This document shows, piece by piece, positions 18,113 to 39,355 of a stretch of 64,000 bases of DNA. The stretch is from Lautropia sp. (lineage in GTDB: Bacteria; Pseudomonadota; Gammaproteobacteria; Burkholderiales; Burkholderiaceae_E). Below the pieces are notes generated by a model. The model was not told the DNA's origin and made no database searches. It saw nothing but the letters and a program-made list of their open reading frames with translations. Location: the NCBI GenBank assembly GCA_030530775.1, contig JAUMUG010000007.1, positions 10,690 through 74,689 of the forward strand, given 5' to 3'. The stretch's first letter is position 1, and each line of letters starts with the position of its first letter. The position numbers and the translations under genes are program-made.

Positions 18113-18184
18113 TGACGCACGCAGATGCCACACAGCCATCGATCATGCACACTGGACCGACGACAGTACCGGCGACCAACCCTC

Positions 18185-19453
18185 ATGACATGGTGGCTTA
18201 TCGTCGCCTGCCTGACCGGCACTCCCGCCGTCTGGGCTGCTTCCTGGGCCGTTTCCCCTGGTGAGAGAATCCAGGATGCCATCGACAGGGCGGCACCGGG
18301 TGATGTGATCGAAATCCAGCGTGGCCGTTATGTCGAAAACCTGCTGATCGAAAAAAGCCTGACACTGCGGGGCATAGACCGCCCCACCATCAGTGGAGGC
18401 GACAAGGACGACACCATCCGTGTGACCGCACCCGATGTGGTGCTGGAAGGGTTGATCGTGTCGGATTCGGGCGGCAGCCTGCGCAAGCAGAATGCCGGCA
18501 TCTACATTCAGCCCGGAGCGCACCGTGCCGTCGTGCGCAATTGTTTCCTCAGCTACAACCTGTTCGGACTGTGGATCGAGAAAGCCGATGATGTGCAGAT
18601 CATCGGCAACAACATCACCGGCAAGCGCGACTTCGACAGTGCCCAGCGCGGTAACGGTGTGCAGCTCTACAACACCAAGGGAGCACGCATCACTGGTAAC
18701 GAGATCAGCTTCGTTCGCGACGCGCTCTACATCGATGTATCGCACCATGCGATCTTCAAGCAGAACAGGCTGCATCACAGTCGCTACGGCACTCACTACA
18801 TGAATTCCTACTACAACCTGTGGGAAGACAACGATACCTGGGAGAACCGAGGCGGCCTGGCGCTGATGGAAGTGCGTGATCAGGTGATCCGTAACAATCG
18901 TGCCTGGAACAACAGCGATCACGGCATCATGCTGCGCACCCTTCAGGATGCGGAAGTGGACGACAATCTGGTCGTCGGCAACGGCCGCGGTCTGTTCGTC
19001 TACGATGTCGAGTATGTGAAGCTACGCGGCAACATCGTGGCCGACAACCGGATCGGTGTGCATCTGTCGGGTTCGGCCCGCAACGAAGTCGACGGCAACG
19101 ACTTCATCAACAACCGCGAACAGATCAAGTACGCCGGGACCCGCGACACGAGCTGGGGTGGCCCGGTCGGCAATTACTGGAGCAACTACCGGGGCTGGGA
19201 CCGCAACGACGACGGCCGCGGCGACATTCCCTACGAAGCCAATGATGTGGTCGACCGGCTGATCTGGCGCTATCCGACGGTGCGTCTGTTGCTGGCCAGT
19301 CCTGCCGTACAGGCACTGCGTGTGGTTGGCCAGCAGTTTCCGGTGCTTCGCGTACCCAGCGTGGTCGAGCAGCAGCCCAGAATGCAGCCAAGCTCCCGCG
19401 AATGGCAGCAATGGCGTCAACGAACTCGAGAGAACCTGTACCATGCCCCCTGA
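18185..19453 (+). CDS. nosD: NosD, periplasmic copper-processing beta-helix protein
   Basis: Signal peptide, then right-handed beta-helix repeats typical of NosD (...NITGKRDFDSAQRGNGVQLYNTKGARITGNEIS...). Gene order after nosR. Confidence 0.85.
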   Translation: MTWWLIVACLTGTPAVWAASWAVSPGERIQDAIDRAAPGDVIEIQRGRYVENLLIEKSLTLRGIDRPTISGGDKDDTIRVTAPDVVLEGLIVSDSGGSLRKQNAGIYIQPGAHRAVVRNCFLSYNLFGLWIEKADDVQIIGNNITGKRDFDSAQRGNGVQLYNTKGARITGNEISFVRDALYIDVSHHAIFKQNRLHHSRYGTHYMNSYYNLWEDNDTWENRGGLALMEVRDQVIRNNRAWNNSDHGIMLRTLQDAEVDDNLVVGNGRGLFVYDVEYVKLRGNIVADNRIGVHLSGSARNEVDGNDFINNREQIKYAGTRDTSWGGPVGNYWSNYRGWDRNDDGRGDIPYEANDVVDRLIWRYPTVRLLLASPAVQALRVVGQQFPVLRVPSVVEQQPRMQPSSREWQQWRQRTRENLYHAP

Positions 19454-20615
19454 TTCCACTGCATTGCCGAACGGCCCTGGGCACGACCGTGATGCTGGCG
19501 TAGCAGAAACAGCGCCCGGCAACGACCCCCAAACCCTCATCCGCCTGCAAGGTGTCAGCAAACACTTCGGCAGCTTTGCCGCCGTCGACGATGTATCGTT
19601 CGACATCCATCGCGGCGAAGTCTTCGGACTGATCGGCCACAACGGTGCCGGTAAAAGCACTCTGTTCAAGATGATGCTGGGGCTGTTGGCACCCACTGAA
19701 GGCCGGATCGACATTGCAGGTGAATCGGTGGCGGGACCGCAGGCACGCAACGTACGCCAGAAAATCGGCTACCTGCCCGAGAACATCGCGCTGTGGGACA
19801 ATCTGAGCGGCCTGGAAACCCTGCGTTTCTTTGCCCGGCTCAAACACATCGATACCGCGGACTGCCCTGCCCTGCTGGAAAAAGTCGGTCTGGGTCATGC
19901 CGGCGACCGTCCGGTGCGTGCCTATTCCAAGGGCATGCGCCAGCGCCTGGGTTTTGCACAGGCGCTGCAGGGTAACCCGCACGTGCTGTTTCTGGATGAA
20001 CCGACCACTGGCCTTGACCCGAGAGCGATTCATTTCTTTTGGGACACACTGGCCGAGCTGCGTGAACAGGGACTGACGATCGTTCTGACCTCGCACATTC
20101 TGGCCGAACTGCAGCATCGCGTCGACCGGGTGGCGGTGATGACCAATGGCCGCGTCGAAGCAATGGGCTCACTTGCGCAGCTGCGCGAACGCTTCGACCT
20201 ACCGCTGCGGGTCGAAGTAAAGTTTCGACAGCCGGCCGACACAACCGGCCAACCGCGTATGCCGGCTGCGACCTTGGTCGATACCGCCGTCCCCCCCCCT
20301 CCTGGCACATCCGGACTCGAGACCACGCGACAAGGTGCGGATGCCGATCTGATCGAATCGCTCATCGCCCGGCTCATCGACACCTTGCCTGCCCCGCTGG
20401 AAAAGCTGCGCTTTCAGCGCCTGCCCGATGAAGACCATCGCACCACGCTGCTGATCGCAGTGCCCCGACCACAGAAGATGCTGCTGATGCAGCATCTGAT
20501 GCAAGCATCTCTGTTGATCGCCGATATCCATGTCGAAGAACCTTCGCTGGAAGACATGTTCTTTTCCGACGATGGCGATACAACCTTGCATCCCCCCGAC
20601 AGGAGACCTGCATGA
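19443..20615 (+). CDS. nosF: NosF, ABC ATPase, with ~95-aa C-terminal extension
   Basis: Walker A GHNGAGKST, signature YSKGMRQRLGFAQAL, Walker B VLFLDEPTTGLD. Start overlaps the nosD stop by 11 nt. A non-canonical C-terminal tail follows the ABC domain. Confidence 0.85.
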   Translation: MPPDSTALPNGPGHDRDAGVAETAPGNDPQTLIRLQGVSKHFGSFAAVDDVSFDIHRGEVFGLIGHNGAGKSTLFKMMLGLLAPTEGRIDIAGESVAGPQARNVRQKIGYLPENIALWDNLSGLETLRFFARLKHIDTADCPALLEKVGLGHAGDRPVRAYSKGMRQRLGFAQALQGNPHVLFLDEPTTGLDPRAIHFFWDTLAELREQGLTIVLTSHILAELQHRVDRVAVMTNGRVEAMGSLAQLRERFDLPLRVEVKFRQPADTTGQPRMPAATLVDTAVPPPPGTSGLETTRQGADADLIESLIARLIDTLPAPLEKLRFQRLPDEDHRTTLLIAVPRPQKMLLMQHLMQASLLIADIHVEEPSLEDMFFSDDGDTTLHPPDRRPA

Positions 20616-21430
20616 TTCAGATGCGACAGGTGGCCACACTGGCCTCCAAGGAATTCCACGACCGACTGCGCAATCGCTGGGTGCTGGCGGTGGCGCTGGT
20701 GTTTGCCGTGTTCTCATTGGTCATCACCTATGCCGGCGGTGCCCAGCAGGGCACGGTCGGATTGCGTTCGCTCGAATTCACCATCACCAGTCTGGTCAGC
20801 CTCGTCATCTATCTGGTGCCGCTGATCGCCTTGCTGCTCGGCTTCGATGCCGTCGTCGGTGAAAAGGAACGCGGCTCGCTCGATCTGCTGCTGGCCTACC
20901 CGGTCACGCGCAGTGAATTGCTGCTGGGCAAATACTGCGGACTGGCGCTGGCACTGGCGCTGGCCATGCTGGCGGGACTGGCCACCGTCGGGGTGGTACT
21001 CGTCATCCAGTTCGGCAACGATGCGTTGTTCCATTACGTCGGCTTCGTAATCAGCGCACTGCTGATGGGGCTTGCCTTCCTGAGTCTGGCGGTGCTGGTG
21101 TCGGTACTGGCCCGCGACAGAACCCGGGCCTCGGGCGCCGCTATCATCCTGTGGTTTCTGTTCGTGCTGGTCTTCGATCTGGTATTGCTGGGCGTCCTGG
21201 TGGCAACCGCCGGCCATTACGGCGGGGATATCTTCCCCTATCTGTTGCTGCTCAACCCCACCGATGTGTTCCGCATTCTCAATGTCTTTTCGACCGAAGA
21301 CGTGAAAAGCGCCTACGGTCTGATCAATGTGATGCCGCCCACGCTCTCGAACATCGGTGTTCTGAGCACTGTGATGCTGGCTTGGATCGTTGCCCCCCTG
21401 ATGCTTGCCAATTGGAGATTCAAACCATGA
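20612..21430 (+). CDS. nosY: NosY, ABC-2 type permease
   Basis: Six TM helices; ATGA overlap with the nosF stop; position within the nos operon. Confidence 0.85.
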   Translation: MIQMRQVATLASKEFHDRLRNRWVLAVALVFAVFSLVITYAGGAQQGTVGLRSLEFTITSLVSLVIYLVPLIALLLGFDAVVGEKERGSLDLLLAYPVTRSELLLGKYCGLALALALAMLAGLATVGVVLVIQFGNDALFHYVGFVISALLMGLAFLSLAVLVSVLARDRTRASGAAIILWFLFVLVFDLVLLGVLVATAGHYGGDIFPYLLLLNPTDVFRILNVFSTEDVKSAYGLINVMPPTLSNIGVLSTVMLAWIVAPLMLANWRFKP

Positions 21431-22020
21431 TGACTCATCAGCCTTACGCCTGCCAATGTAACCACTGTGATACTTCAAGAGATGAATCCTGGCTGAATCG
21501 GCGGCGCATGATGCTGGGCCTGATGGTGCTGGCCTCACTGCCCGTGCTATCGGCCTGCAAGTCCGAAGAGCAAAAGGCAGCCAACACCGAACCAGTCGAA
21601 ATCACCCGCGACACCGCCTGCGAACTGGACGGCATGCTGCTGGCGGACTACCCCGGCCCCAAGGGGCAGATTCATTACGCCGGTCAGGAAGAACCCGTCT
21701 TCTATTGCGACACGGTGGAGGTTTTGAACGCGTTGCTGGTACCCGAACAGGTCCGCAAGGTCAACGCAGTCTATGTGCAAGACATGGGCAAGACCGATTG
21801 GGATGATCCCAAGGGTGCCTGGATCGATGCACGCAAGGCCCTCTACGTGCATGGCAGCAAACGCAAAGGATCAATGGGGCCGACGTTGGCCAGTTTCAGT
21901 GAAGAAGCCGATGCACAGGCCTTCATCCAGGAATACGGCGGCAAACTGCTGCGCATGGAAGAGATCACACCGGAAATGGTCGACCTGCGCGGTGGCGCCC
22001 ACCGGGACCACAGCATGTAG
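21427..22020 (+). CDS. nosL: NosL, copper-chaperone lipoprotein
   Basis: Lipoprotein signal MMLGLMVLASLPVLSAC; conserved NosL body (...IHYAGQEEPVFYCDTVEVLNALL...). ATGATGA overlap with nosY. An alternative start at 21508 (MMLGL...) would give a conventional signal peptide. Confidence 0.75.
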   Translation: MMTHQPYACQCNHCDTSRDESWLNRRRMMLGLMVLASLPVLSACKSEEQKAANTEPVEITRDTACELDGMLLADYPGPKGQIHYAGQEEPVFYCDTVEVLNALLVPEQVRKVNAVYVQDMGKTDWDDPKGAWIDARKALYVHGSKRKGSMGPTLASFSEEADAQAFIQEYGGKLLRMEEITPEMVDLRGGAHRDHSM

Positions 22021-23372: not shown

Positions 23373-24398
23373 TCATTCGATCGAGTGGATCGTCTGCAGG
23401 ATCAGCCGGATCGTCAGTGCATTGGCTTCCCAATGCGGCATGTGCCCCGTGTCGGGCAGCAGATGCAGCGCCGTCTGCGGCGGCGCATCGAGAACATGCC
23501 GCCAGGGTAACACCGCATCGGCACGCCCTTGCACGATGCGTTGCGGCCCCTCGAAAGCCTGCAGGCAATCGAGGATACGGTAACGCACCCGACCACTGGC
23601 ATCGAACAGCTGCCGCACCAGCGCCGTCAGCTGTGGCCGCCCCTCGTCCAGCCGATCGAGCATCGCCCGCAGATAGCTGGTTGATGCCCGATAATGCCTC
23701 ACCGTCAGATAGGCCAGCGCCTCGGCCAATGACGCCTCATCGGTGGCCGACAGAATACCCTCGATGAAACGCCGGCGGATTTCGGCCCCCATACCCAACG
23801 GTGCCAACAGCACCAACGCTTCGGCAGCAAACAAGTGTTGCGTCAGCAATCGCGCGGCTATCAGGCTACCAAAGGAATGCGCGACCAGCACCGGATGCAA
23901 AGGCTGCTCTGCCACCAACACATCGGCCACCGCCTCGACCACTGCATCCACCGAACGAACCTGAGCACGACTGTCGCCGTGCCCGGGCAGATCGATGGCC
24001 AGCACATTCAAACCCGCCCGACTGAGATTCAAAGCCGTCGCCGACCAAACGTCGATGCTGCCGAACATACCGTGCAACAACACCGCCGTACGCGTGCGTG
24101 ATGGAGCGCCCCATACATCCCTGGTTTCCGCGACCGGTTCGGTATTCGCCGATGCGCCCACGGCATCGACATTCCGTCCATACGCACCAGCATCCGGCGT
24201 GACGAGTTGGACACCTTCGCCGGACAGGCAGTTGCCGAAACCCATGCCGATATCGGTGTTGGTGTTGGTGTTGGTGTTGGCAGACCAGTATTTCAGATGT
24301 ATCTGACCATGCCGGGTCCGACACCAACGTGAAATGCCGACCTGTGCCGGCTGGCGTGCAGTCATCGTCTCGACCATACCCCCATACCCGTCGTTCAT
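23373..24398 (-). CDS. alpha/beta-fold hydrolase with internal (Asn-Thr)4 repeat
   Basis: ...VLLHGMFGS...VAHSFGSLIAARLL... nucleophile elbow and ...LLPDTGHMPHWE catalytic His region. The N-terminal ~110 residues and the true start are uncertain. Confidence 0.6.
   Translation of the reverse strand: MNDGYGGMVETMTARQPAQVGISRWCRTRHGQIHLKYWSANTNTNTNTDIGMGFGNCLSGEGVQLVTPDAGAYGRNVDAVGASANTEPVAETRDVWGAPSRTRTAVLLHGMFGSIDVWSATALNLSRAGLNVLAIDLPGHGDSRAQVRSVDAVVEAVADVLVAEQPLHPVLVAHSFGSLIAARLLTQHLFAAEALVLLAPLGMGAEIRRRFIEGILSATDEASLAEALAYLTVRHYRASTSYLRAMLDRLDEGRPQLTALVRQLFDASGRVRYRILDCLQAFEGPQRIVQGRADAVLPWRHVLDAPPQTALHLLPDTGHMPHWEANALTIRLILQTIHSIE
24255..24280. repeat. hexanucleotide microsatellite (GGTGTT)x4.3 inside the hydrolase CDS
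   Basis: Direct reading: cGGTGTTGGTGTTGGTGTTGGTGTTGGc. In frame, encoding NTNTNTNT on the minus strand. Confidence 0.8.
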
Positions 24399-24500
24399 CG
24401 ATCTCTGTCAGCGAGCTGCCCTGCAGATCGAAACTGCCTACGACCGCCCGCACCCATCGAGCACCACGGCAGCCATGCCATCGCCTGGAAGCCCGGACTA

Positions 24501-24575
24501 CAACTGGGTATTCCGATAATCGTGACCGCTGGATTCCGGCATCGTGACCGCCAATTCCGGTGATCGTGACCGCAG
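24501..24575. repeat. three-and-a-half tandem copies of a ~21-22 bp unit (TTCCGg..ATCGTGACCGC)
   Basis: attccgataATCGTGACCGC / tggattccggcATCGTGACCGC / caattccggtgATCGTGACCGC / aggaccgataagc, read directly. Iteron-like array in a non-coding, lower-GC patch. Confidence 0.7.
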
Positions 24576-24723
24576 GACCGATAAGCAAGAGCAAAGCGCC
24601 TCCGGAATTGTACGTTTTTTGGACAATGAGTCGGATATGAGCCCCATTGCCCAGGCCTTCGTGGGTCGTGCTCATGCTGGTTCGGGCACCTCGGTTTCTT
24701 CATGAGCGCTGGGATGCCTTCGA

Positions 24724-25038
24724 TCAGCGCCAGTCGCTCGGTACGCAGCAGCCGATCCTGTATAGCCAGCTCCGGCTCATCGATCCAGGCATACCAGTGT
24801 CCGACGGGCAACTGATTGGTGACGATGGTGGCACGGCCACACCAGTCCGGTCGTCAAGGATTTCCATGAGTTCCTGGCAGAATCGACATCGAGAACCTGG
24901 GCTTTTATCCTTCTGAAAAACGAGATCACCGACACATTGCTCGGCTGCTATCGCCGCAATCAGTGTGAAGTGGCACCGGAAAACGACCCGGGCGGTGACG
25001 CCCTGATCGATCACCTGCTGCTCCTGGGTAACGGACAT
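24724..25038 (-). pseudogene. possible remnant of a PIN-like / Mut7-C (DUF82/DUF5615) family gene
   Basis: Translation ...LIAAIAAEQCVGDLVFQKDK...SRCRFCQELMEILDDRTGVAVPP resembles the middle and first zinc-ribbon half of Mut7-C RNase-domain proteins. The N-terminus and second zinc knuckle are missing or out of frame. Surrounded by ORF-poor, lower-GC sequence. Confidence 0.25.
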
Positions 25039-25554
25039 TTCGTCGCAGGTGACAGCCCCTGCGATCTCGCCCCCCGGAAGCCGCCATTTATGGACCGCGT
25101 CTCAGCGCTACCTCGATACCCTGACCGGCCATCAGGCATAGCCTTTCCTTATGCGAGAATATCTTGGTCCGAACAGTCAGGAAGCTTGCAACCAGACCAA
25201 ATCGAATACCGGCAATCTCATTACCTCACTGTATCAGTATCGGATCAAGCTCAAGAAATGTCTTCCTGTACTGGGCTGACTGGACGGTCTTGGTGGAAAC
25301 GAATTCTTTACAAAAGAATCCAGGCGCAAACTAAGTGTCAGGCCCGGTATCAGGATCACAACGGCAGGACAGTCGAAGGATCAACACACTGGCCAGGTTC
25401 CAACCGAAAGAACAGGAATAAGATCAGAAGCGGATCAAAAGATCGGATCACAAGCAACGGCCGATCGAGAAACGAAAATGGGAACGACCGAAACGAAGAA
25501 CACAATCCAATCGATCTTGAAGACGAGAACCGATTTCGATGACGAACTCAGTGC

Positions 25555-25582
25555 AAAAAGCCGCGCTTCGACGCGGCGTTTT
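25555..25582. terminator. bidirectional rho-independent terminator downstream of the OmpA-family gene
   Basis: AAAAAG-CCGCG-cttcga-CGCGG-CGTTTT: perfect GC stem flanked by A-run and T-run, so U-tract on both strands. Lies 25 nt beyond the stop of the minus-strand gene that ends at 25607. Confidence 0.7.
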
Positions 25583-25606
25583 ACCCCAGTGCATTCGAAG
25601 ACAAGA

Positions 25607-26647
25607 TCAAGGCTTCCTGACCCCCACGACTTCGATGCTGACTCGGCGATCCGGCTGCAGACACTGCAAAACATCGTCCCGATCACGTGGATTCAGCTCC
25701 TGACAAGCGGAAGGTTCGACCGGAACCGCACCCATCGGCACCATCGCCATCGGATGCGTCACGCCCAAGCGTTGCAGCTCGTCTCGAACAGTCATCGCAC
25801 GCTGCATCGACAGACGAGTATTGTAGTTGGCATTACCCATACGATCGGCATAACCGATCAGATTCAGACTGTCGATACGGACATACTGTGCCTTCAGTTC
25901 CTCGGCAAAGGAGCGCAGCTGTGCCAAATCTGACGGCAGGATATCATTGACGCCGTACTGATCAAAGAGGAAACGCACCTCCAAATTCGCCACCGAAGTA
26001 GCGATCTCAGCAACTGATGCTCCACCCGTCTGGCATTGTTTGGCCGCCTGTTCCGCTTCTGCCGTCAAGTCCTCGGCAATCTGAATATAGGGGCTGGCAT
26101 GCCGCCACCCACCCTGACGAATCTCATTTCCGGCATGTACCAGCTCGACTTCGGCACATGCCAACCGAGCCGCCGCGCAGCTCAGACCTTCCGAATTGCG
26201 GATCTGGACGTGGCGAGACCACAGATCATCGCGCAGGCGACGAGCTTTGTTGACCAGCGGTGTTTCGCTGACATCAGGCATCACACCACGCTCAAGTTGC
26301 GTCAGGATATCCTGCGCCTGATGCAAGGCAGCCTTCGGAAACCCGCCCCGGTCATTACGGCTGTACTCATGAAAGCTTACATCCAGCCAGCACTGTGCCT
26401 TGGCCAAGGCATAGTTGTCGAGTCTGATGCCCTGTTTGGAATTCAAATTGGCAATGCGAGCCTGAGTTTCACGATAGACCCCCTGGTCACGAGCGACCTG
26501 TGCCTCTTCGATTTTTTCAAAAGAAGATGCTGCCGTCGACGACTGTCCATCCGTGCTACTGTCTTTGACTGCGGAGGAATTGGCGCATGCCCCCAGCAAC
26601 ACCGACAGTAGAACTGCTGTAGACGTTGTTCGAATGGCTCTTTTCAT
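25607..26647 (-). CDS. OmpA-family lipoprotein with DUF4398-like N-terminal domain
   Basis: Start at MKRAIRTTSTAVLLSVLLGAC (lipobox). C-terminal OmpA peptidoglycan-binding domain (...NLIGYADRMGNANYNTRLSMQRAMTVRDEL...PDRRVSIEVVG). Confidence 0.8.
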   Translation of the reverse strand: MKRAIRTTSTAVLLSVLLGACANSSAVKDSSTDGQSSTAASSFEKIEEAQVARDQGVYRETQARIANLNSKQGIRLDNYALAKAQCWLDVSFHEYSRNDRGGFPKAALHQAQDILTQLERGVMPDVSETPLVNKARRLRDDLWSRHVQIRNSEGLSCAAARLACAEVELVHAGNEIRQGGWRHASPYIQIAEDLTAEAEQAAKQCQTGGASVAEIATSVANLEVRFLFDQYGVNDILPSDLAQLRSFAEELKAQYVRIDSLNLIGYADRMGNANYNTRLSMQRAMTVRDELQRLGVTHPMAMVPMGAVPVEPSACQELNPRDRDDVLQCLQPDRRVSIEVVGVRKP

Positions 26648-26892
26648 GGTTCTGATCGTCGACCGGCAGGATGGATAGACGCTGTCCGCTAAATAAGGTT
26701 GGAACACTCCTCAAATTAAAGGAAGCGACAGAACTTGCCTGCAGCATACCGACAAAAGGCAAAGTAAGGCCGATACACAGCGCCTGAATATGTCGGTAAC
26801 CATCAACATACCAACAGCACACGGCTCCGCCCCAAAGTCGGATCCATTCATCCAGCTCCTCATACACTTCGTCGAGTGTCACATTGGCCAGC

Positions 26893-26943
26893 GTGCGCCC
26901 ATGCTGGGCGCACCCAAAAAAAACCCCAGCCCAAAGGCTGGGG
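26893..26943 (-). terminator. tandem hairpins / rho-independent terminator downstream of the galactose-oxidase-like gene
   Basis: GTGCGCCC-atgct-GGGCGCAC, then CCCCAGCC-caaa-GGCTGGGG preceded by A8 on the plus strand (a T8 tract on the minus strand). Confidence 0.65.
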
Positions 26944-26996
26944 TTCGTCCCTATCCCAACAATCGGCCGATACTCTGACCGGTTGATGGATCAAGG

Positions 26997-28880
26997 TCAG
27001 GGATTGGTGGTCGGGTTGATCCGAATCATCCGAGCCTTCGAAGGCACACCGGCCTTATTGAAAGCGAACACCATGTAGTAGCCCGGAGGCGTCAGGTACT
27101 TATTGGCTGGCAACTGGATTTCCAGCGCGTTGCCGTTGACCTTGAAGTCCACCTGCTGATAACGCTGTTCCATGTCGAAGGCGTGGGTCACGGCACCAGT
27201 CTTGATCAGCGTCACCTTCCCGATATCCGCAGCATTCGGCGAATTCACACTGAAGGCAGCGGCCGGATCGACGACCAGCGGTAGGCCACCATCGGCCCCT
27301 TCCAACACCGGGCGTTCTGCCAGCGTACCATCATCATTGAACAGATAGGGCGGACGATAGATCTGAGCATTCAGGTTCTGGACCGGCCCCGGCGCCCCTC
27401 CACCCGAAGACAGCACCGTACCATCCGGCAACAGCAGTGTCACGCTGTGATAGATGCGGATGGCATCAAACTTGGCAGCAGTCGTGAACTGACGGGTTTC
27501 GGGATTGAAGATCAGCGCATCGTAATTGATCTCGCCAGCGTCCTGGTTGATCGGCTCAATGGTGTCGAGAAGCACGTTCTTGGTCGAACCACCGGAAACC
27601 AGCACATTGCCGTCAGCCATCACGGTAGAGCTGGCCCAATAGTAGTTCTTCGACAATTTGGGCAGATCGATCAGCTCGGGCTTGCCGCTGTTGATGTCGA
27701 TCAGCGTGGCACGGGGCTCCATGCCACCAAACTGCAGAATCAAGCCTGGACGAATCAACGCAGCGGTGGAAGCACCCGACCAGCCACGATAAAAATTCGT
27801 TTCCTTGGCACGTTCGACCGGATCACTGTGCGGAATGTCCCAGTGAGCGCCGAACATCTTGATACTGCCAGTGCCCTTGGGATCGATCTCGTACATGTAG
27901 TGCGGGTCGAAGCCGAAGATCTTGCCGTTCGGAGCGACGAAGTTGCGCGGGTAATTATTGTCGAAGTACCGGTTTTCACCGTTGACCGACATGAAAGTCT
28001 CGTTCGTCTTGATGCTGGTCAACGGACGCGAGGTGCCATCCAGGTGACGAACCTCGGGATATTCTTCACCGCTGGTTCCACCCTGGATATAGATCTCGCC
28101 ACTGGGCAGCGTCGTGGCCGAACCGTACCAGCGAGGCAGCTGCATCGGGTTGGCATCACGCTTCAGCGAGTTGTCAGCCGGATTGAACAGGTTGACATCG
28201 CGCACACCGGTACTGGTGGGACGACCACCGCGGATCAGGTCTCCGCCCAGCACCAGCATTTCGCCCGTCGTTGGGATCAGGATCTGCGCGGAGCAGAACA
28301 GGAAGGTGCCGGTCGTGTTTTCCAGCAGCGTGTGGGAATCGTCCGCAATGCCCAGCGTCGGATCCCAGACGTCATAATAGAACTTCCAATCCCCCTTGGC
28401 GCTGTAGTCGACACCAAAACTCATCACCCGGCCATCCGGCGTCAGGGCGGCATGAATCGCCATGACCGGCCAATCGAACAGCGGAGTCCAGCTGCCCATG
28501 GTCTTCAGCGTCGGGCTGGGGGTCGGCGCATCGATCCGAGTTATACCGCTGCCGGTGGTGGCCTGGGCATCATCCGGCACGACGCCACCCAGTCCCGGTG
28601 CAGGTTTGCCATCACCTTCGGCAGCCACTTGAGCCGGAGGCGCCCCCAATGTCATGGTCGAGCCGGCAGCAGTGCCACCGGTGGCAGCCGTGCCGGCGCC
28701 GGCCGTACCGGCCGTACCAGTCGTTGCTATCGTACTGGTGGTATTGGTCGTGCCCGATGTCTGGGCATTGGACGAGACGTTCGTATCGCCGCTGTCGGAA
28801 CCGCCGCCACCACCGCATGCGGCGAGCAAGGTCAGCAGGGCGAGCGAAGCGAGCGGGAAGGATGGAGTAGATACTCTCAT
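26997..28880 (-). CDS. galactose-oxidase / glyoxal-oxidase-like lipoprotein (kelch propeller + DUF1929 E-set C-terminus)
   Basis: Lipobox LLAACGG, then a Gly/Thr/Ser-rich linker. Kelch-type blades (...LVLGGD..., ...IYIQGGTSG..., ...VLVSGGS..., ...VLSSGGG...). C-terminal ...GYYMVFAFNKAGVPSKARMIRI is typical of the DUF1929 domain of radical copper oxidases. Confidence 0.7.
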   Translation of the reverse strand: MRVSTPSFPLASLALLTLLAACGGGGGSDSGDTNVSSNAQTSGTTNTTSTIATTGTAGTAGAGTAATGGTAAGSTMTLGAPPAQVAAEGDGKPAPGLGGVVPDDAQATTGSGITRIDAPTPSPTLKTMGSWTPLFDWPVMAIHAALTPDGRVMSFGVDYSAKGDWKFYYDVWDPTLGIADDSHTLLENTTGTFLFCSAQILIPTTGEMLVLGGDLIRGGRPTSTGVRDVNLFNPADNSLKRDANPMQLPRWYGSATTLPSGEIYIQGGTSGEEYPEVRHLDGTSRPLTSIKTNETFMSVNGENRYFDNNYPRNFVAPNGKIFGFDPHYMYEIDPKGTGSIKMFGAHWDIPHSDPVERAKETNFYRGWSGASTAALIRPGLILQFGGMEPRATLIDINSGKPELIDLPKLSKNYYWASSTVMADGNVLVSGGSTKNVLLDTIEPINQDAGEINYDALIFNPETRQFTTAAKFDAIRIYHSVTLLLPDGTVLSSGGGAPGPVQNLNAQIYRPPYLFNDDGTLAERPVLEGADGGLPLVVDPAAAFSVNSPNAADIGKVTLIKTGAVTHAFDMEQRYQQVDFKVNGNALEIQLPANKYLTPPGYYMVFAFNKAGVPSKARMIRINPTTNP

Positions 28881-29693
28881 GGCTACCTATCTGATTCTGA
28901 AAATGTGAAACGTCCCACCAGACCCATCGACAGGAATGTGAAGGGCTTGCCACACACAATCTATGCCCCGACGGCTGGGAGCCTGCAGTTCCAAGACCTG
29001 CAACACATCCAGGGCGTCATCTGGTTCAGTTCCACAAAGGATCTTCCGCTCTCTTGACGACCAACGCATTTAAATAATGCACAGTTCTACGTCATCGGGA
29101 AGGCTGTCGATGACAAAAATTCTAACGAAAGATGGTGTAATCAAGGAGCGCCCCACACAAACCCTTCACAAACCACATAAAGTTCGCTTACAGCAGCCGA
29201 TATCAATGCGTTAAATTTAATAATTTTTACATATACGCACTTTTACTCACATATGAGAAATGAGGTCTTACTGAAGCTTCGCGATTCAGGGCATCGATAT
29301 CCTCAACACCGTACTCCTGTCTCCCACGAACTTCGACAAAGCGTAACTTACGTCAGTTTATCGACGACTTTTGAAGAAAGCCGCCGGCCCTCTTCCGAAG
29401 CATCCAATGCGGAATTTCCCGGTCTCGCCTGGCCCACCGACTCATTTGCCGGCTTCGGAAAAGGCGAAGCCATCGTTCTGGCCGGCATACAGAGAGTTGC
29501 GATTGCCAGGAACCGCAGATACGGAGTCCAAGAATAGATGCCTGTATTCGATACCCAGTGGACTGCGGAAACATTCCGATTTCTGCTCCGCGCGGGTATC
29601 TTTCAGAGGCGCCCCGAGGCCAGGGCCGGAGCGTCACTACTTGCACGCTTCGGATCACAGCCCCCCGGGGGAGGATGTCCAGACTGCGAAGAA

Positions 29694-31400
29694 TCAGGCA
29701 GCGGCTGGCTCGGGGCTGTGCGCCTCGGGCACCGGCTGATTGGCCGGTATGGCGTTGTTCTCACGCCGGGAAGCGGCAATCAGCCGATCCGACAGCCGAA
29801 GCGCCAGCGCCACGAGAGTCATGGTCGGATGGTTGGACGAAGATGTCGGAAACACGGAAGAGCCGGCAACGTACAGGTTGGCCATGCCATGCACCTGGCA
29901 ATTGCGATCCACCACGCCATGGCGCGGCGAATCATGCATCCGGGTCGTGCCCATGTGGTGATAGGTGCCTTCCATGTCAGTAGGCCAACCAGTGTCGTTG
30001 ATAGCGGGCCCCAGCTTCACCCGGGCGATGTTCTTGTCCTCGAGTTCACGGGCGATCAGATCGAAAGTAGTGTCGACGGTGTCTCGCACCCGCTGTGTCA
30101 GTCGCCAGTCGACCTTGGCGCGCCGCATGCCCAGCGCATCGATATCGTCACCCAACATGACCCGGCTGTTATAGTCCGGTTCCGGCTCGGCGATCATTTC
30201 CATCGTAACTGAACGCACCATGCGCCGCGAGCTGCAGGTATGGGCGATCACATATTCCAGCGAATCCATCGGGTGCCCGAAAAGATGGCCGAGGTCAGTG
30301 CCTAGACCGACGATCGGCGACCATTTGCCTAGCACTCGTTGGCGCATCCGGTAGAGCGCCCGCGAAATATGTCCGCCTTCACCTGCATAGAGCGAACGGA
30401 ACCAGACCTGGGCATCCAGCAAGCCATGCTGCTTTTGGACAGCCAACGGCAGGCGCAACTGGCCAGAAATCTTGTTGTCACCGATGATCAGGTCATCCAC
30501 GATGATGTGAAACTTGATGTCATACAGTGGATTGAAGCGATAGGGCTCGTTGAATTCGACCACCCCGTTCATGAATCGGGGGTGATCCTGAAAATAGCGG
30601 CCGACCAGATCGTAGCGGTTGCCGATGCCGTTGCTGTGCTGGCGGTTGGAGGCCAACATCAGCCGCGCGTTCTCGATACCCCCCGCGGCCAAAATGAAGG
30701 TCTTTGCACGCACAGTGGCGCTCACGCCCTTGAGCGTCCGAATCCGCACGCTTTCCACCGCCCCACCCCAGGGATTGCACTGGATGTCGACGACGTTGGC
30801 TTTCAGGTAAAGCTTGACATGACGGGAACTTTTCAGTCCATTGCGGTGTGCTTCCCCCATCCGCAAAGGCGGGCTGAACTGGGAAACGATCTCTTCGACC
30901 CGTTCATGGTCTACAGGTAAACGGGTGGCATTGACCGGAAAATCTTTGCCGATACCCTGTGCAGGCTCGTCCCCCATGCCCACCCATTGCTCGGGCCGGT
31001 ATTCCTGCACCGGGATGTTGAGCACCTCATGGGAACGAGCGTAGTACTCGTCGAGATCTTCCCGCCCGATGGGCCAACCACTGGCATTGACCCAGGAGCG
31101 GTGCTCGAAGGCGCTTTGATCCCAGGGGCGGCAGAACCCCCCCCAGCAGTTGGTACTGCCGCCCAGAAAGCGGCTACGTGTTCCATCAGCAAAATCGTAA
31201 GGAATGCCGACACTACTGCCACGATAGAGATCCGAGGTCGCTTCGTCCCGGGAAAAGCCTCCGCTTTCCAGAATGGCGCAGTCGATACCGGCCTTCTCGA
31301 ACTCAAGTGCCATCGTGATCCCGGCGGCCCCTCCACCGATGATGCAAATTTCAGTTTGAATGATGGAACCCGTATCAATCTCGTTGGTATCGATAAGCAT
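29694..31400 (-). CDS. GMC-family FAD oxidoreductase (choline-dehydrogenase-like)
   Basis: Start moved to MLIDTNEIDTGSIIQTEICIIGGGAAGITMALEF (Rossmann GxGxxG). GMC signatures ...ILAAGGIENARLM... and ...GTTRMHDSPRHGVVDRNCQVHGMANLYVAGSSVFPT... Confidence 0.8.
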   Translation of the reverse strand: MLIDTNEIDTGSIIQTEICIIGGGAAGITMALEFEKAGIDCAILESGGFSRDEATSDLYRGSSVGIPYDFADGTRSRFLGGSTNCWGGFCRPWDQSAFEHRSWVNASGWPIGREDLDEYYARSHEVLNIPVQEYRPEQWVGMGDEPAQGIGKDFPVNATRLPVDHERVEEIVSQFSPPLRMGEAHRNGLKSSRHVKLYLKANVVDIQCNPWGGAVESVRIRTLKGVSATVRAKTFILAAGGIENARLMLASNRQHSNGIGNRYDLVGRYFQDHPRFMNGVVEFNEPYRFNPLYDIKFHIIVDDLIIGDNKISGQLRLPLAVQKQHGLLDAQVWFRSLYAGEGGHISRALYRMRQRVLGKWSPIVGLGTDLGHLFGHPMDSLEYVIAHTCSSRRMVRSVTMEMIAEPEPDYNSRVMLGDDIDALGMRRAKVDWRLTQRVRDTVDTTFDLIARELEDKNIARVKLGPAINDTGWPTDMEGTYHHMGTTRMHDSPRHGVVDRNCQVHGMANLYVAGSSVFPTSSSNHPTMTLVALALRLSDRLIAASRRENNAIPANQPVPEAHSPEPAAA

Positions 31401-31613
31401 GTAGAGCCCCCAAGGGCAGCAGACGAGAGAACCACATGATGGACTGGTCCGGATACATGGTCCGGATACACACAAGACACACAAGGCTCCCGATGAACCG
31501 CAGATCTGTTTCGGAAAACTGTTCAACAAGGGGAAAGTATAAGCGTGGTGTTGTAGGTGAGCGACTGTCAGTCTACTGCCATATTGATGAAATGCACGCT
31601 TTGGCACATTCCG

Positions 31614-32354
31614 TCATGACCAACCCCTTTGGCATTGCAAAGCATTGCATACTTCCCACAGATCCTGAAAAACTACTGAAGAAAGACCGCTTATTTTACT
31701 CGGAATTGTTTCGAAAAGGGAATCCAGATCGGGACGGCGCATCCAGGCCACTTGCATGCCCAGTCCCCGGGCTGGTTCCACGTCAAAGCGCCAGTCGTCG
31801 CCGATATGCAATGTCGCTGCAGGCGGCACGTCCAATGCCTCACAAGCGGCCAAAAAGATAGCTGGATCTGGCTTGGCAGCGCCGAATTCATGTGCGTTCA
31901 GTGCTACGCTGAAATATTTGCCCAACGGCGTGCGACGGACATCCGCATTGCCATTGGAGATGACGGCCAAGCGATAGTGTTTCGACCAGAGTGCCAGCAC
32001 CGCCTCCACCTCGGGATAAGGCTGGACCTGCTGACGTGCGTGATAAAAACACTCGAAAGCCGGTTCTGCCAATCGGGGATCTTCTCCATTCATTTGCAGA
32101 TTCTGACGCAGGTACTGCAGGCGCAGCCAGCTGACGTCATGGGCATGTTCGGGAAAGGATGCCTTCAGCTCGCGGATTCTGGCTGCCATCGGCGGGCATT
32201 CGGCGGTGCGTGGCGCCCTGGGGCGCAACCATTCCGTGAGGCGCTGTTCGGCGGCGATCAGTACGGGCGCCACCGGCCACAGGGTGTCGTCGAGATCGAC
32301 GGTGATGGCCTGAATCCCTTCAAAGATGCGGGGTACACGGGTGCCGGGTGTCAT
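31614..32354 (-). CDS. HAD-IA family hydrolase
   Basis: ITVDLDDTLW motif I, ...VISNGN... motif II, ...LHIGDDWRFDVEPARGLGM... motif III. Start set at MTPGTRVPRIF. Confidence 0.7.
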   Translation of the reverse strand: MTPGTRVPRIFEGIQAITVDLDDTLWPVAPVLIAAEQRLTEWLRPRAPRTAECPPMAARIRELKASFPEHAHDVSWLRLQYLRQNLQMNGEDPRLAEPAFECFYHARQQVQPYPEVEAVLALWSKHYRLAVISNGNADVRRTPLGKYFSVALNAHEFGAAKPDPAIFLAACEALDVPPAATLHIGDDWRFDVEPARGLGMQVAWMRRPDLDSLFETIPSKISGLSSVVFQDLWEVCNALQCQRGWS

Positions 32355-32705
32355 GACGTATCCTGTTGGTTGGCATCCTCCGACGCACGTGCACGGCATG
32401 GCGCAAACGAGGAAAGCAGACAACTCCTGTGCGCATGGGTGCTCTACGCCTGCGAACGGGTAACGATAGCATCCACCGAAGACTGCCGGCAGGTCACGTT
32501 CCCCTCCGTGGTCTGAAAACGCGGGCCTCGGGCATTTCGGAAGCCACGGATTCATACCAGCTGTACTCATGGCGGGGAACGTTTTCCCACGAAGCGCTCT
32601 CCATGATCCCGACCGACGTTCACGTCGGGAAGACGGACCCCGCCTGTGGCAGGGCAGGAAGTCGCCATCGGGCTTCGGCCCGGCAGAACGGGTTGCCCGG
32701 AAGCT

Positions 32706-33938
32706 TCAGAACCTGACGCCGAGCTCGCGGTAGACAGTCTGGATGCCGTCGATATAGCGTGCCCGACTGAAATTGCCGGCGCAACGCTCGCGGGCATGCC
32801 GCCCCATCTCCGCGATGTCGGAGTCCGGACGGGCAAAAACATCGGTCAGCACCTCCGCCAGCTTGTCGGCATCGCCACTGGGGAAGACCCAACCGGTTTC
32901 GGGAGTGATCATTTCAGGGATACCGCCGATATCGGCCCCTACGACCGGCGTACCACTGGCAAAGGCTTCGAGGATGCTCATCGGTGCGTTCTCATACCAC
33001 TCGCTGGGCAGCACCAGTGCACGTGCACCACGAACCTGCTGCCACAGGGCATCACCCGAACAGTAACCGAGCCATTCGATTCTGTCTGCGCCCGGCAATG
33101 CCTTGAGTTCGGCTTCGAGCGGACCGGTTCCAGCAATACGCAATTTGACTCCGGCCTTGGTGGCAGCCTTGACCAGAGTGGCAACCCCCTTCTCGACGAC
33201 CATGCGACCGGCAAACAGCACGTAGTCCCCCGGCTCGTAGGAAGGCTGGAAGATGCCGGCGTCGACGTAGTTGGGCACATAGGTGATCTGCTCTGCCGAC
33301 CAGCCCCACTCGATCAGCTTGTCACGATAGAACTGGGAAGGTGCGACGACCCGGTTGACGTTTTTCTTCCAGACGTCCATGAAACGGCTCAGCCCCGACT
33401 CGACCGCCACGATGATACTGGGCGCAAGCGAGTCGCGGATGCAGCGATGCTTGATCACGTTGACGACCGAGCCGGTCTTACATCGTTCACAGACCCCTTC
33501 GCTGTTCAGCATCTTGTAGGCCGGACAGGCGATCTTCAGGTCATGGGCGGTCAGGACGACCGGAATCCCTTCCTGGCGCAGAACCGGCAGCACCGACGGA
33601 GAGATGTGGTGATAGATGCCGTGCACATGCGCCACATCGGCAGGAAACACCGACAGCAGGCTGCGCAGTTTTTTCTGCGCTTCGAAGGAATAGATCGATT
33701 TGCAGGCTTTGACCACCTTGTCCTTCAGGCCATAGGAGTGGCCGAACTCCACTTCCTCGACGAAATACTGACTCCAGGGCGAAGGCAGGTTCTTGGGATG
33801 ATGCATCGACATCACCGCCGTTTCCCAACCCAGTTCCTTGAACAGAGCATCGTGCTCCAGGAACACGACGTCGGCTCCCCCACGTCGGTAATGGTAGGAA
33901 TTGAACGACAGCAGATGAGGGCGTGGTGATGATTTCAT
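32706..33938 (-). CDS. glycosyltransferase, GT4 (group 1) family
   Basis: GT-B fold: N-terminal ...VVLTAHDL... and C-terminal ...FAGRMVVEKGV...LVLPSEWYENAPMSILEAFASGTPVVGADIGGIPEMI... (EX7E region). Confidence 0.8.
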   Translation of the reverse strand: MKSSPRPHLLSFNSYHYRRGGADVVFLEHDALFKELGWETAVMSMHHPKNLPSPWSQYFVEEVEFGHSYGLKDKVVKACKSIYSFEAQKKLRSLLSVFPADVAHVHGIYHHISPSVLPVLRQEGIPVVLTAHDLKIACPAYKMLNSEGVCERCKTGSVVNVIKHRCIRDSLAPSIIVAVESGLSRFMDVWKKNVNRVVAPSQFYRDKLIEWGWSAEQITYVPNYVDAGIFQPSYEPGDYVLFAGRMVVEKGVATLVKAATKAGVKLRIAGTGPLEAELKALPGADRIEWLGYCSGDALWQQVRGARALVLPSEWYENAPMSILEAFASGTPVVGADIGGIPEMITPETGWVFPSGDADKLAEVLTDVFARPDSDIAEMGRHARERCAGNFSRARYIDGIQTVYRELGVRF

Positions 33939-34367
33939 AAGAATGCAATTCTATCGGTACTCACAGCCCATCGCCCCCTAATCCGCCTGCCTCTCGATCA
34001 ACGGACCGGAGGATGCGACGAACACCCGGTGTAACCTGCAACTCATGCCTGAAGCCGCTTTTACACAGTTGAACGTGGTATTACCACAACAGAAGCCAAG
34101 GTTTCCCTTAGAGTCTTGCATTTACTCACAATGTAGCGATAAAACAAGTTAAACAGCCAGTATCCGCGCTGCCGGGGAGCGTCGCTGACGCATCGAAACT
34201 GCTGAGTTGCCCATCGATCAGCCATCCATAGCCAATCAACGGGTAGCATAAGTACCGAACGCGATCCCTTTAGCCCCCCATGAGACACTTCTGAGCCAAG
34301 GCCAGCAGGATCCAAAGATGCACCGGAGCGGGCGCAGCCCGCTGGCCCAAGCCGTTTTGCGGAAGTC

Positions 34368-35417
34368 ATGAAGCCCAAAATCGTTTTCGTGGTGATGTCC
34401 GCGATCCACAGTGTCGAGTCAGTTGCACAGCTTGCACGTGCACTGGCTCCTCATACCGTGGTGGTACATCACGACTTTAGTCAGACAGCCGAGTTCCCTC
34501 TGAACGAACCGAACGTCATTTTCGTGCCCAATCCAAAGCGCACGGGGTGGGCTATTTGGGGCTTCACCGAGGGGATTTTCCACGCGATTCAGTACGCGGT
34601 GGACAATCTGGAATTCGACTATCTGCAGATCCTGAGTCCGACCTGCCTGCCCATCAAGCCGATGAGCGCTTTCGAGGCGCACGTGGCATCCGGCAAGACC
34701 GATGTGGATTTTTCGTGGATCGACATGCTTGCCGACGAAGACGCGCTGATGTCGGTCGCGTACCGGGGATTCACGGCGGAAGGAACGCTGATTCATCGGG
34801 TGCTGCGGCGCTTGGTGCGCGTCTATTTCAACGATACACCGCTGAGACGGGACATCGCCGGCGTTCAGTTGCGTACCGGCGGTCAGCTGCGCCCGGACGG
34901 CAAGATGCGCTTTGCGGCGCGCGTCGCCCGGGCCGTCACCCGCGCCATGATCAACCCGAAGATCGGCGGTCATGTATTCACCAAGGATTTCCCCCCCTAC
35001 TACGGCTCGACCTGGTTCGGGGCGCATCGACCGGTGATCGAATGGGCGCTGCAACGCTTCGCCCAGCCTGACATCCAGTCGCATTTTCCGAAACTGACGA
35101 TCGCCGATGAATTCTTGATCCCTTCGCTCTTCAAATGCGGGGTGGCACAGCACGGTTTCAAAGATGGACCGATGAACCATTGCATCGTGACCTTCATCGA
35201 GGCCAATCCAGCCTGGCTGACAGACAACGACCTGGATACGTTACGTCAATCACCGGCATTCTTTGCCCGCAAATTTCCGGACGATCTCCACAATTCGACC
35301 CGGCACCGGGTTCTGTCCGAGCTGGTCGGCATGAGCGACGCCGACATCATGGGCAAGCCGACCGGGGCACCAGTCGATGCCCCCGAAGCACGATTGAGCG
35401 CCTCGACCGCAGGTTGA
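34368..35417 (+). CDS. GT14-like (core-2/I-branching-type) glycosyltransferase
   Basis: KIVFVVMSAIHSVESVAQLARALAPHTVVVHHDFSQ... resembles the Branch-domain consensus (ilvhk..eql.rll.aly.p.n.y.iHvD), as does ...RTGWAIWGFTEGIFHAIQYAV...FDYLQILSPTCLPIKP. Assigned by eye, not searched. Confidence 0.5.
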   Translation: MKPKIVFVVMSAIHSVESVAQLARALAPHTVVVHHDFSQTAEFPLNEPNVIFVPNPKRTGWAIWGFTEGIFHAIQYAVDNLEFDYLQILSPTCLPIKPMSAFEAHVASGKTDVDFSWIDMLADEDALMSVAYRGFTAEGTLIHRVLRRLVRVYFNDTPLRRDIAGVQLRTGGQLRPDGKMRFAARVARAVTRAMINPKIGGHVFTKDFPPYYGSTWFGAHRPVIEWALQRFAQPDIQSHFPKLTIADEFLIPSLFKCGVAQHGFKDGPMNHCIVTFIEANPAWLTDNDLDTLRQSPAFFARKFPDDLHNSTRHRVLSELVGMSDADIMGKPTGAPVDAPEARLSASTAG

Positions 35418-38652: not shown

Positions 38653-39355
38653 ATTAGGTACAAGCGGACAAACGGCGGGAAAGCCACCCGTGCACGACAG
38701 ACGGCAATGACCTGTCTCGATACTCTGTGCGAGCTCAAGATATTGCGCGCCGCTCCTTTGCCAGCAAAAGACAAATCGATGGCCTGTCGATCAGGACCGA
38801 CCACGACCAGTTCCTCGTTGTTATCCATGGTGGCGGACATGCCACCCAGAGCTCCGAGCATCGCCCCGCCCTGCCAATGTTGAAGCCAACCGCCTGTGTG
38901 CATCTGCCGGCGGTCCGGAGGGCCCAAAGCTCATGTCGAGCTTGCCATTGTAGGCGGAGCGTCGCACCCACACCACTTTTGTACCTGCGTCAGCGTGTGA
39001 TTTGCCGCAAGAGCCTGCGGTCCTCAAGCAACAGCCCGGATCTTGACAAAACGTTGCAGCAAAGAAGGGCTTTTTTCCTCTCCTATTCTGAGCACCAATC
39101 TCACGCAATGAAAATTCTGAGCGAGCACTCGAATACAACCCCTTGAAAAGACACGTCAAAAATAGTGTCACGTGATTTTTCTCGCATTCCATCCCATGGG
39201 GGCAACCGCCCATCCTGTTGGCGTATCGCATCGTTCTGTAAGCCACTTAGAGTTCGTGTCGCCAAAAGAAGACACACCGACGCAACTCAGCAACAGTGAC
39301 GTTCTGCCGTTATTCGGAGATTCGTCTGTTTTGCACAACACAACGGACTCTAAGC

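Follow-up and report, generated by a model that had tools for sequence, protein, structure and literature searches.

A predicted lipid-anchored radical-copper oxidase and its conserved GMC-family flavoenzyme neighbour in Lautropia

The subject of this report is a pair of genes in a stretch of 64,000 nucleotides from Lautropia sp. (GenBank assembly GCA_030530775.1, contig JAUMUG010000007.1, positions 10,690 to 74,689 of the forward strand), hereafter the window. The pair consists of a gene for a 627-aa lipoprotein (26997..28880, minus strand), identified as a radical-copper oxidase (CRO) from its open reading frame (ORF), Pfam matches and matches in the Protein Data Bank (PDB), and a gene for a 568-aa flavin adenine dinucleotide (FAD) oxidoreductase of the GMC family that carries no export signal (29694..31400, minus strand; Pfam, gene call and orthologue N-termini). 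The best overall explanation of this arrangement, to which we assign a probability of about 0.6, is that a radical-copper oxidase predicted to reside in the cell envelope and a predicted cytoplasmic GMC enzyme serve one pathway, rather than forming a jointly secreted pair that generates H2O2. The finding is a well-supported refinement of annotation; the oxidase belongs to a known enzyme family but is itself uncharacterised.

Family and active site of the oxidase

The first-pass annotation of this DNA described a radical-copper-oxidase lipoprotein with a kelch propeller and a DUF1929 domain, and Pfam, the PDB matches and a lipobox at Cys22 bear this out. The C-terminal early set (E-set) domain (residues 541-621; 27018..27260, minus strand; Pfam and alignment) matches PF09118, GO-like_E_set, formerly DUF1929, at 6e-21, with 75 bits against a cut-off of 25. 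The kelch-type propeller catalytic domain (approximately residues 125-530; 27291..28508, minus strand), delimited by alignment with galactose oxidase and by AlphaFold2 (AF2) and Foldseek, matches the Pfam families Kelch and Glyoxal_oxid_N, the latter at 35.6 bits, just under its cut-off of 37.5. In a phmmer search of the PDB, galactose oxidases are recovered at 2e-33 to 8e-31 over query residues 125-621 and GlxA (4unm) at 4e-30 over residues 224-621 only. The AF2 model is all-beta, with a predicted local distance difference test (pLDDT) score of 80, mostly above 90 in the propeller and below 50 in residues 1-112, and Foldseek matches it to galactose oxidases (2e-38, TM 0.65) and GlxA (5e-36). 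The NCBI protein that is 100% identical to the CRO comes from a metagenome-assembled genome (MAG) of Lautropia sp. and is named 'galactose oxidase early set domain-containing protein [Lautropia sp.]'.

The phmmer alignment equates Cys196, Tyr252, Tyr477, His478 and His566 of the CRO with Cys228, Tyr272, Tyr495, His496 and His581 of the Fusarium graminearum galactose oxidase. The corresponding codons lie, on the minus strand, at 28293-28295 (Cys196), 28125-28130 (Trp251-Tyr252), 27447-27452 (Tyr477-His478) and, inside the E-set domain, 27183-27185 (the copper ligand His566). All four copper ligands, namely Tyr252, Tyr477, His478 and His566, comprising an equatorial and an axial Tyr and two His, are present, and Cys196, found in the context FLFCSAQ and aligned with Cys228, is invariant, so that the thioether cross-link is predicted as well. 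The five residues are unchanged in alignments of 29 and 23 homologues with identities down to 35%; the comparison with the Fusarium enzyme that had been proposed for the Cys-Tyr cross-link and the copper ligands thus found every residue in place and invariant in 29 homologues. By these signatures, the CRO is a radical-copper oxidase of the galactose oxidase/glyoxal oxidase/GlxA superfamily, AA5-like in CAZy terms, with a complete set of predicted first-shell residues, and that it is catalytically competent and lipid-anchored is well supported. The contrary possibility, a kelch/E-set scaffold or adhesin with no catalytic role, could appeal to the resemblance of the protein's long tether and lipid anchor to those of surface adhesins and to the slight shortfall of the Glyoxal_oxid_N match. 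It is hardly credible and we reject it because all the catalytic residues align and are invariant, even in homologues at 35% identity, and because the fold matches galactose oxidases and GlxA.

The second shell differs from that of the Fusarium enzyme. The alignment begins at galactose-oxidase residue 155 and the CRO contains no CBM32 domain; the position of Trp290 is occupied by a gap or by Ser270 (Asp in the family consensus) and that of Arg330 by Phe; and the motif GGTSGE stands where galactose oxidase has GGSWSGG. Because the equivalents of Arg330 and Trp290 are missing, the substrate is not expected to be galactose in the Fusarium sense; it is probably carbohydrate-like or a small hydroxy-aldehyde, as for GlxA. 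The triad Arg250-Trp251-Tyr252 is invariant in both the 29- and the 23-sequence alignments. Against the NCBIfam GlxA equivalog NF052501, the CRO scores 137.8 bits (cut-off 800), over residues 390-621 only, which places it outside that equivalog. The distances of the protein to all the characterised subfamilies are about the same, and the Pseudoarthrobacter enzyme (9G43/9G8H) is its best match.

Export and anchoring of the oxidase

The N-terminus of the CRO, MRVSTPSFPLASLALLTLLAAC, includes a lipoprotein signal peptide (residues 1-22; 28815..28880, minus strand; assigned from sequence) with the lipobox LAAC, in which Cys22 is followed by Gly23, in agreement with the pattern [LVI][ASTG][GA]C. 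Beyond the lipobox extends a Gly/Thr/Ala-rich stretch of about 90-100 residues (composition G22 T21 A17), mapped by AF2 pLDDT and composition as a disordered tether of residues 23-112 (28545..28814, minus strand). Once the start codons are corrected, all CROs of the clade have an L[AT]AC-GGGG lipobox, and extension of the ORF in the seemingly truncated relatives restores both the lipobox and Pro-rich linkers of 70-130 residues. As predicted from sequence, the lipoprotein signal and the disordered tether stand where fungal galactose oxidases have the N-terminal CBM32. We infer that the CRO is an outer-membrane lipoprotein on a flexible tether, facing the periplasm or the cell surface; Gly at position +2 would direct it through Lol sorting, such that the enzyme would hang from the outer membrane within the cell envelope.

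The GMC-family neighbour

The ORF of the GMC enzyme spans 29694-31607, and the true start is taken to be the ATG at 31400, at which the gene is called on this contig and which the N-termini of 27 orthologues support; the longer, GTG-started reading frame (from 31607) was rejected, as its extension has no counterpart in the orthologues. Pfam GMC_oxred_C matches at 9e-23; PF05199 reaches 81.8 bits (cut-off 24.6), and PF00732 is below its cut-off (17.3 vs 23). The landmarks of the protein are GGGAAG at residues 22-27, NCWGGFCRP at residues 84-92, His481/His482 and Asn523. The C-terminal motif YHHMGTTRM is invariant in the 27 orthologues, as are His481, His482 and the conserved Asn523, and with a fold that Foldseek matches to GMC enzymes (2e-27 to 6e-22, with 8jej at 2e-27 for the AF2 model) the assignment to the family is secure. 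A profile search of the PDB finds the alpha subunit of FAD-dependent glucose dehydrogenase (FAD-GDH) at 6e-39 and the large subunit of fructose dehydrogenase at 9e-33. The nearest solved structures, these two along with C-glycoside oxidase and bacterial pyranose oxidases, act on sugars.

Neither a Sec, nor a twin-arginine translocation (Tat), nor a lipoprotein signal was found in any of the 27 orthologues, all of which start with ML[IL]D; the GxGxxG motif begins at residue 22, that is, the FAD-binding fold starts directly at the N-terminus. The periplasmic relatives FAD-GDH and fructose dehydrogenase are exported together with a small subunit that bears a Tat signal, and a 3Fe-4S cluster relays their electrons to a cytochrome. 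The 6A2U segment TCCGNNNCMPIC, which contains the cluster cysteines, aligns with a Cys-free segment of the GMC profile, and no gene for a Tat-signal small subunit or a cytochrome subunit was called near the GMC gene in any genomic context. Export by the Tat 'hitchhiker' route was considered and rejected, given that no partner genes were found. The GMC enzyme is accordingly assigned to the cytoplasm by default, from sequence features, and, lacking a signal, small subunit, cytochrome and 3Fe-4S cysteines, it would by default occupy a different compartment from the CRO.

Two further observations concern this protein. The segment NCWGGFCRP (31125-31151, minus strand), with two Cys, is invariant in the 27 orthologues and replaces the 'TWHW' of FAD-GDH; AF2 confidence is low here. 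In pyranose oxidase, the FAD-linking His lies in 'STHW' at this position, where the GMC enzyme has an invariant Cys; a cysteinyl-FAD link or a redox disulfide is possible for NCWGGFCRP. In Noviherbaspirillum massiliense (L094, 973-13521), a homologue with 48% identity is encoded, without a CRO gene, in a different exopolysaccharide (EPS) cluster comprising Wza, Wzc, an epimerase/dehydratase, GH16, UbiA, GtrA and an FAD_binding_4 protein; this location hints that the GMC clade may serve glycan biosynthesis.

Conservation of the gene pair

Conservation of the pair was assessed by scans of genome contigs and metagenome contigs, and all the figures given here apply among the matches listed. In the species-representative genomes, with 80 CRO loci listed, one other Lautropia locus has a GMC gene within 10 kb. 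Individual look-ups of homologues and the metagenome scan showed the pairing to be much wider than this suggested: every metagenome contig listed whose CRO is 50% or more identical and whose upstream sequence is long enough has the GMC gene. The first-pass annotation had proposed examining the distribution of the pair, and the pairing proves to be kept in other genomes, in two unrelated contexts.

Context A, that of the oral Lautropia, has the order GT2, Branch, GT4 (with an extra GT4 in some), HAD, GMC, gap, CRO, OmpA, and is represented by the window, L003, L086, L087, L095/L096, L097-L105, L107, L120, L123, L140 and L148. In context B (L088, L089 and L090/L091), a divergent Cox-like molybdoenzyme cluster is followed by the GMC gene and then the CRO gene, with intergenic gaps of 110-350 bp (110 bp in L088); compared with the window, the GMC enzymes are 64% and the CROs 47-55% identical. 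The genes downstream are unrelated to those of context A, and no EPS, HAD or OmpA genes are found. Context B consists of contigs from MAGs and metagenomes, and those of its relatives that have a name carry the label Burkholderiaceae bacterium or Lautropia sp. The proximity to an EPS locus that was remarked upon at first is thus real in oral Lautropia and does not extend to context B, where the pair occurs without EPS genes.

In a third context, C (L002, L083-L085), the CROs are 69% identical to that of the window and stand apart from any GMC gene. In the neighbour-joining tree, these CROs nest inside the context-A clade of oral Lautropia, and context C is therefore best read as a derived relocation or copy. 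Giant ORFs, from 1,200 to over 2,800 aa long and nearly devoid of Pfam matches (L002, 1430-20155; L083, 3365-11220), flank the context-C genes and may encode large surface proteins; an MNT/HepT toxin-antitoxin pair is also among the neighbours. Judged from gene order and sequence comparison, the GMC-CRO pair appears to be an ancestral, retained and breakable unit of one Lautropia/Burkholderiaceae clade.

One Lautropia MAG (L082, 4926-8233) has an MbnB/DUF692-HvfC-DoxX gene set and an ECF sigma factor downstream of CRO-OmpA; this set is not at the corresponding position in the window. Such gene sets are associated with metal-binding peptide systems.

Transcriptional organization

All the genes discussed here are on the minus strand according to the ORF list of the window and, in the direction of transcription, are arranged as GT4, HAD, GMC, an 813-bp gap, CRO, terminator and the OmpA lipoprotein gene. 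The first-pass annotation had placed the GMC gene 800 bp from the CRO on the same strand, followed by a HAD hydrolase; the distance (813 bp) and the common strand stand, but, as all the genes are on the minus strand, the GMC gene lies upstream of the CRO and is transcribed first.

The intergenic region (28881..29693, minus strand), identified by composition and alignment as the candidate promoter/operator region of the CRO, is AT-rich as had been reported: the GC content is only 0.43-0.45 over 28950-29400, compared with some 0.58 in the vicinity, with the AT-rich part at approximately 29040-29290. Alignment with L086 and L087 reveals conserved blocks at 29107-29146 (with TAGAAT at 29119-29124), 29065-29084 and 29039-29047; no such conservation is seen with the more distant L003. 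The first 450 nt or so past the GMC stop codon do not align between species, only the promoter-proximal blocks being conserved. The block at 29065-29084 (minus strand), CTGTGCATTATTTAAATGCG, upstream of the CRO, is common to several Lautropia species as GTGTGC.N.TTTTTAATG; a regulator may bind there, and no known motif could be assigned to the block. A scan of the gap for the sigma-70 consensus yielded no promoter; TTGATT and TAGAAT are present only 14 nt apart, a spacing that keeps a canonical promoter from being established. Matches in an Rfam scan of 24000-35000 were at chance level, with no family above threshold. A 101-aa ORF in the gap (29353-29658) was considered as a hidden gene and rejected, being Arg-rich and not conserved. 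One assembly breaks inside the gap, contig JAUNKF010000011 (L177) ending 298 bp past the GMC gene and JAUNKF010000029 (L082) starting 658 bp before the CRO, so that the gap may hold repeated or hard-to-assemble sequence.

The double-hairpin terminator recognized downstream of the CRO at first pass (26891..26946, minus strand; terminator scan and RNA folding) combines an 11-bp GC-rich stem and its run of eight T (T8), at 26921-26946, with another hairpin of 9 bp at 26891-26915; its folding energy is -44.3 kcal/mol (z = -4.76), equalled by 0 of 200 shuffles. Between the GMC and CRO genes, intrinsic terminators composed of a GC stem and a T-run are found in L095 (about 9720-9790) and L098 (about 5560-5640), where the gap measures approximately 350-480 bp, vs 800-990 bp in the window, L003, L086 and L087. 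No terminator was seen after the GMC stop codon in the window, and read-through from the GMC gene into the CRO is possible there. Taken together, the conserved promoter-like block, the GMC-CRO terminators in these two loci and the double terminator after the CRO support the reading, already advanced at first pass, of the CRO as an independent transcription unit in oral Lautropia, with a predicted promoter and terminator of its own.

Proposed function and alternative explanations

[quoted passage not shown] A connection of this pathway with the adjoining EPS locus is possible in oral Lautropia. A shared pathway split over the inner membrane is, in our view, what the conserved pairing most likely reflects. 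Several facts weigh against it. In context A, the two genes are 350-990 bp apart, with a terminator between them in some species, which weakens the case for co-regulation; in context C, no GMC gene lies within 10 kb of the CRO; about 75 distant CRO loci (at most 44% identity) have no GMC gene, and GMC homologues at around 50% identity occur without a CRO. No transporter or other gene that might bridge the two enzymes has been kept alongside the pair, the compartments are predicted only from whether a signal peptide is found, and the counts apply among the matches listed in the contig scans.

These facts give purely historical adjacency its standing as a serious, if somewhat unlikely, rival: the gene order would be inherited without any functional link, the CRO being a stand-alone enzyme and the GMC enzyme belonging to other metabolism (for example, that of EPS or of the HAD hydrolase). 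Beyond the large gaps and terminators of context A and the movement of the CRO away from the GMC gene in context C, this account can draw on the lack of pairing outside the clade, on the Noviherbaspirillum EPS cluster, in which the GMC homologue has no CRO, and on the lack of a recurrent neighbour over the wider CRO family, where clustering of the neighbouring ORFs of 80 loci in search of a universal partner gave a largest cluster of 7/80 with naive ORF calling, which may miss weak signals. It has to contend with the identical order and orientation in contexts A and B, despite different flanks and protein identities of 64% and around 50%, with the gap of just 110 bp in L088, and with the presence of the GMC gene in all the metagenome contigs listed with CROs of at least 50% identity and sufficient upstream sequence. 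A role like that of GlxA or FbfB, in which the polysaccharide of the neighbouring EPS locus would be modified by the tethered CRO, or deposited with its help, and the GMC gene would be incidental, strikes us as unlikely. Such a role would fit the position of GlxA beside CslA and of FbfB beside a glycosyltransferase gene (PMC3543389, PMC11611005), the position of the CRO at the edge of the EPS locus in all context-A oral Lautropia, and the Trp-Tyr dyad of the clade, which appears to be like that reported for GlxA, together with the lack of the galactose-oxidase Trp290; but no glycosyltransferase or EPS export genes lie near the CRO in contexts B and C, which this reading leaves unexplained and which limit it to oral Lautropia, no cslA- or cslZ-like neighbours were seen, and the match to the GlxA equivalog is partial and falls far short (138 vs 800 bits, residues 390-621 only).

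The module originally proposed, in which both enzymes are extracellular and together generate H2O2 while oxidizing sugars, polyols or the glycan ends of EPS, is now quite improbable. The substrates of both families (alcohols and sugars), the reduction of O2 to H2O2 by the CRO, the conservation of the pair next to an EPS locus in oral Lautropia and the periplasmic function of the GMC relatives FAD-GDH and fructose dehydrogenase all speak for it. However, the GMC enzyme has no signal peptide in 27/27 orthologues and none of the features of the exported complexes (Tat small subunit, 3Fe-4S cysteines, cytochrome), and in context B the pair occurs without EPS genes; with no export route for one enzyme and a pair found away from EPS genes, a joint extracellular module is left without support. 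A more specific version of the shared pathway, a dedicated and previously undescribed two-compartment system in which the surface CRO would convert host, dietary or capsule carbohydrate into an aldehyde and H2O2 and the GMC enzyme would process the product inside the cell, is a doubtful elaboration.

Neighbouring genes

The HAD-IA hydrolase (246 aa; 31614..32354, minus strand; Pfam Hydrolase 9e-20 and gene call), which also shows a sub-threshold YigB-like match, accompanies the pair only in the oral-Lautropia context and is missing from context B. Next to it is a GT4 glycosyltransferase (32706-33938, minus strand; Pfam and gene call), part of an EPS locus that extends from about 32.7 kb to about 48.5 kb and encodes GT4, Branch-like and GT2 proteins, Wzz/GNVR and a BY-kinase-like ATPase. 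Within this locus, positions 39296-45064, which separate the glycosyltransferases from the Wzz/GNVR gene, contain very long overlapping ORFs on opposite strands (915 + 842 aa and 668 + 750 aa) with no Pfam match.

On the other side, the CRO is followed by an OmpA-domain lipoprotein gene (25607..26599, minus strand; lipobox LLGAC; Pfam OmpA 4e-9 and gene call), a neighbour that synteny shows to be kept only in the oral-Lautropia context. At 24937-25542 (plus strand) is a low-complexity ORF of 201 aa, rich in Asn, Arg and Lys, which is a gene call in the public assembly and has no family match; around it (25200-25650), there is a strong A-over-T skew of 0.35-0.41 and the GC content is reduced. 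Approximately 5 kb from the CRO, at 13377-22020 (plus strand), lies a complete nitrous-oxide reductase cluster (nosZ, nosR, nosD, nosF, nosY, nosL), another copper-enzyme system, with its own copper-chaperone lipoprotein. A link between the CRO and this cluster was considered and rejected: CRO loci elsewhere show no synteny with the nos genes, so that the proximity is probably coincidental.

Novelty and implications

Lautropia is an abundant commensal of the human mouth. Were the two enzymes functionally linked, the pair would exemplify how a Gram-negative bacterium links extracellular oxidation with intracellular metabolism, and could bear on the H2O2 ecology of the human mouth; a dedicated two-compartment system, if true, would be a copper-dependent source of H2O2 and reactive aldehyde for Lautropia in dental plaque. 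Characterised bacterial radical-copper oxidases are few in the literature searched: GlxA and FbfB, besides a single Pseudoarthrobacter enzyme of solved structure. The locus in the window defines a clade of lipid-anchored oxidases, catalytically complete by their predicted residues, with a conserved flavoenzyme neighbour, and thus offers a concrete pair of proteins for study. Galactose-oxidase-like genes in Proteobacteria have been noted earlier (PMC3543389). In the literature searched, we found no characterisation of a Burkholderiales lipoprotein CRO or of a GMC-CRO pairing, and no paper on 9G43/9G8H; the queries DUF1929, Lautropia galactose oxidase and Pseudoarthrobacter galactose oxidase returned nothing relevant to proteobacterial enzymes.

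Comparison with known systems

The relatives of the GMC enzyme with known structures are the Burkholderia cepacia FAD-GDH (6A2U), the Gluconobacter fructose dehydrogenase (7W2J) and pyranose/C-glycoside oxidases (7QF8, 7DVE), at 16-20% identity. Unlike the 6A2U/7W2J type, the GMC neighbour has neither the 3Fe-4S cysteines nor accompanying small-subunit or cytochrome genes, and has NCWGGFCRP for 'TWHW'.

The best solved match of the CRO is the galactose oxidase of Pseudoarthrobacter siccitolerans (9G43, 9G8H, released in 2025), recovered at 2e-33 with a single sequence and at 290 bits with a profile. This enzyme is bacterial, was crystallised with galactose and is about 26% identical to the CRO; it has 'GRGY' and 'GGSWSGG', with the stacking residue of the Trp290 type, whereas the CRO clade has 'PRWY' and 'GGTSGE'. 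The galactose 6-oxidase of Fusarium graminearum (AA5_2, 1GOF) resembles the CRO in its propeller and E-set domains, from CRO residue 125 onwards, and in the five catalytic residues (Foldseek 8e-38, TM 0.65, about 25% identity). It differs in having a CBM32 as domain 1, Trp290 and Arg330 and in being freely secreted; the CRO is lipid-anchored and lacks these three hallmarks, placing it outside AA5_2 sensu stricto.

Among the Gram-negative bacteria, FbfB of Stigmatella aurantiaca is a galactose-oxidase-like protein that is encoded beside a glycosyltransferase gene and implicated in morphogenesis (PMC3543389). The likeness of FbfB to the CRO is one of description only, and a GMC partner is not mentioned in that paper.

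GlxA of Streptomyces lividans/coelicolor (SCO2837, 4UNM) is similar to the CRO in being bacterial and membrane-attached and in having identical first-shell ligands. Its match covers residues 224-621 of the CRO only, whereas the matches to galactose oxidases start near residue 125. The dyad Trp288-Tyr289 of GlxA (numbering from PMC11611005) appears to be like Trp251-Tyr252 of the CRO, and the ranges of the 4UNM match are consistent with this. The glxA gene adjoins polysaccharide-synthesis genes and is transcribed from its own promoter; GlxA, encoded next to the glycan synthase CslA, is required for glycan to be deposited (PMC3543389, PMC11611005), and its linkage to cslA has been reported to be specific to Streptomyces (PMC3543389). 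No linkage to cslA, cslZ or an endoglucanase was seen at the CRO, the neighbours of which are GMC, HAD and OmpA. GlxA is anchored by an N-terminal helix, whereas the CRO has a lipobox and a disordered tether, belongs to a Gram-negative host and has a GMC flavoenzyme as its conserved partner.

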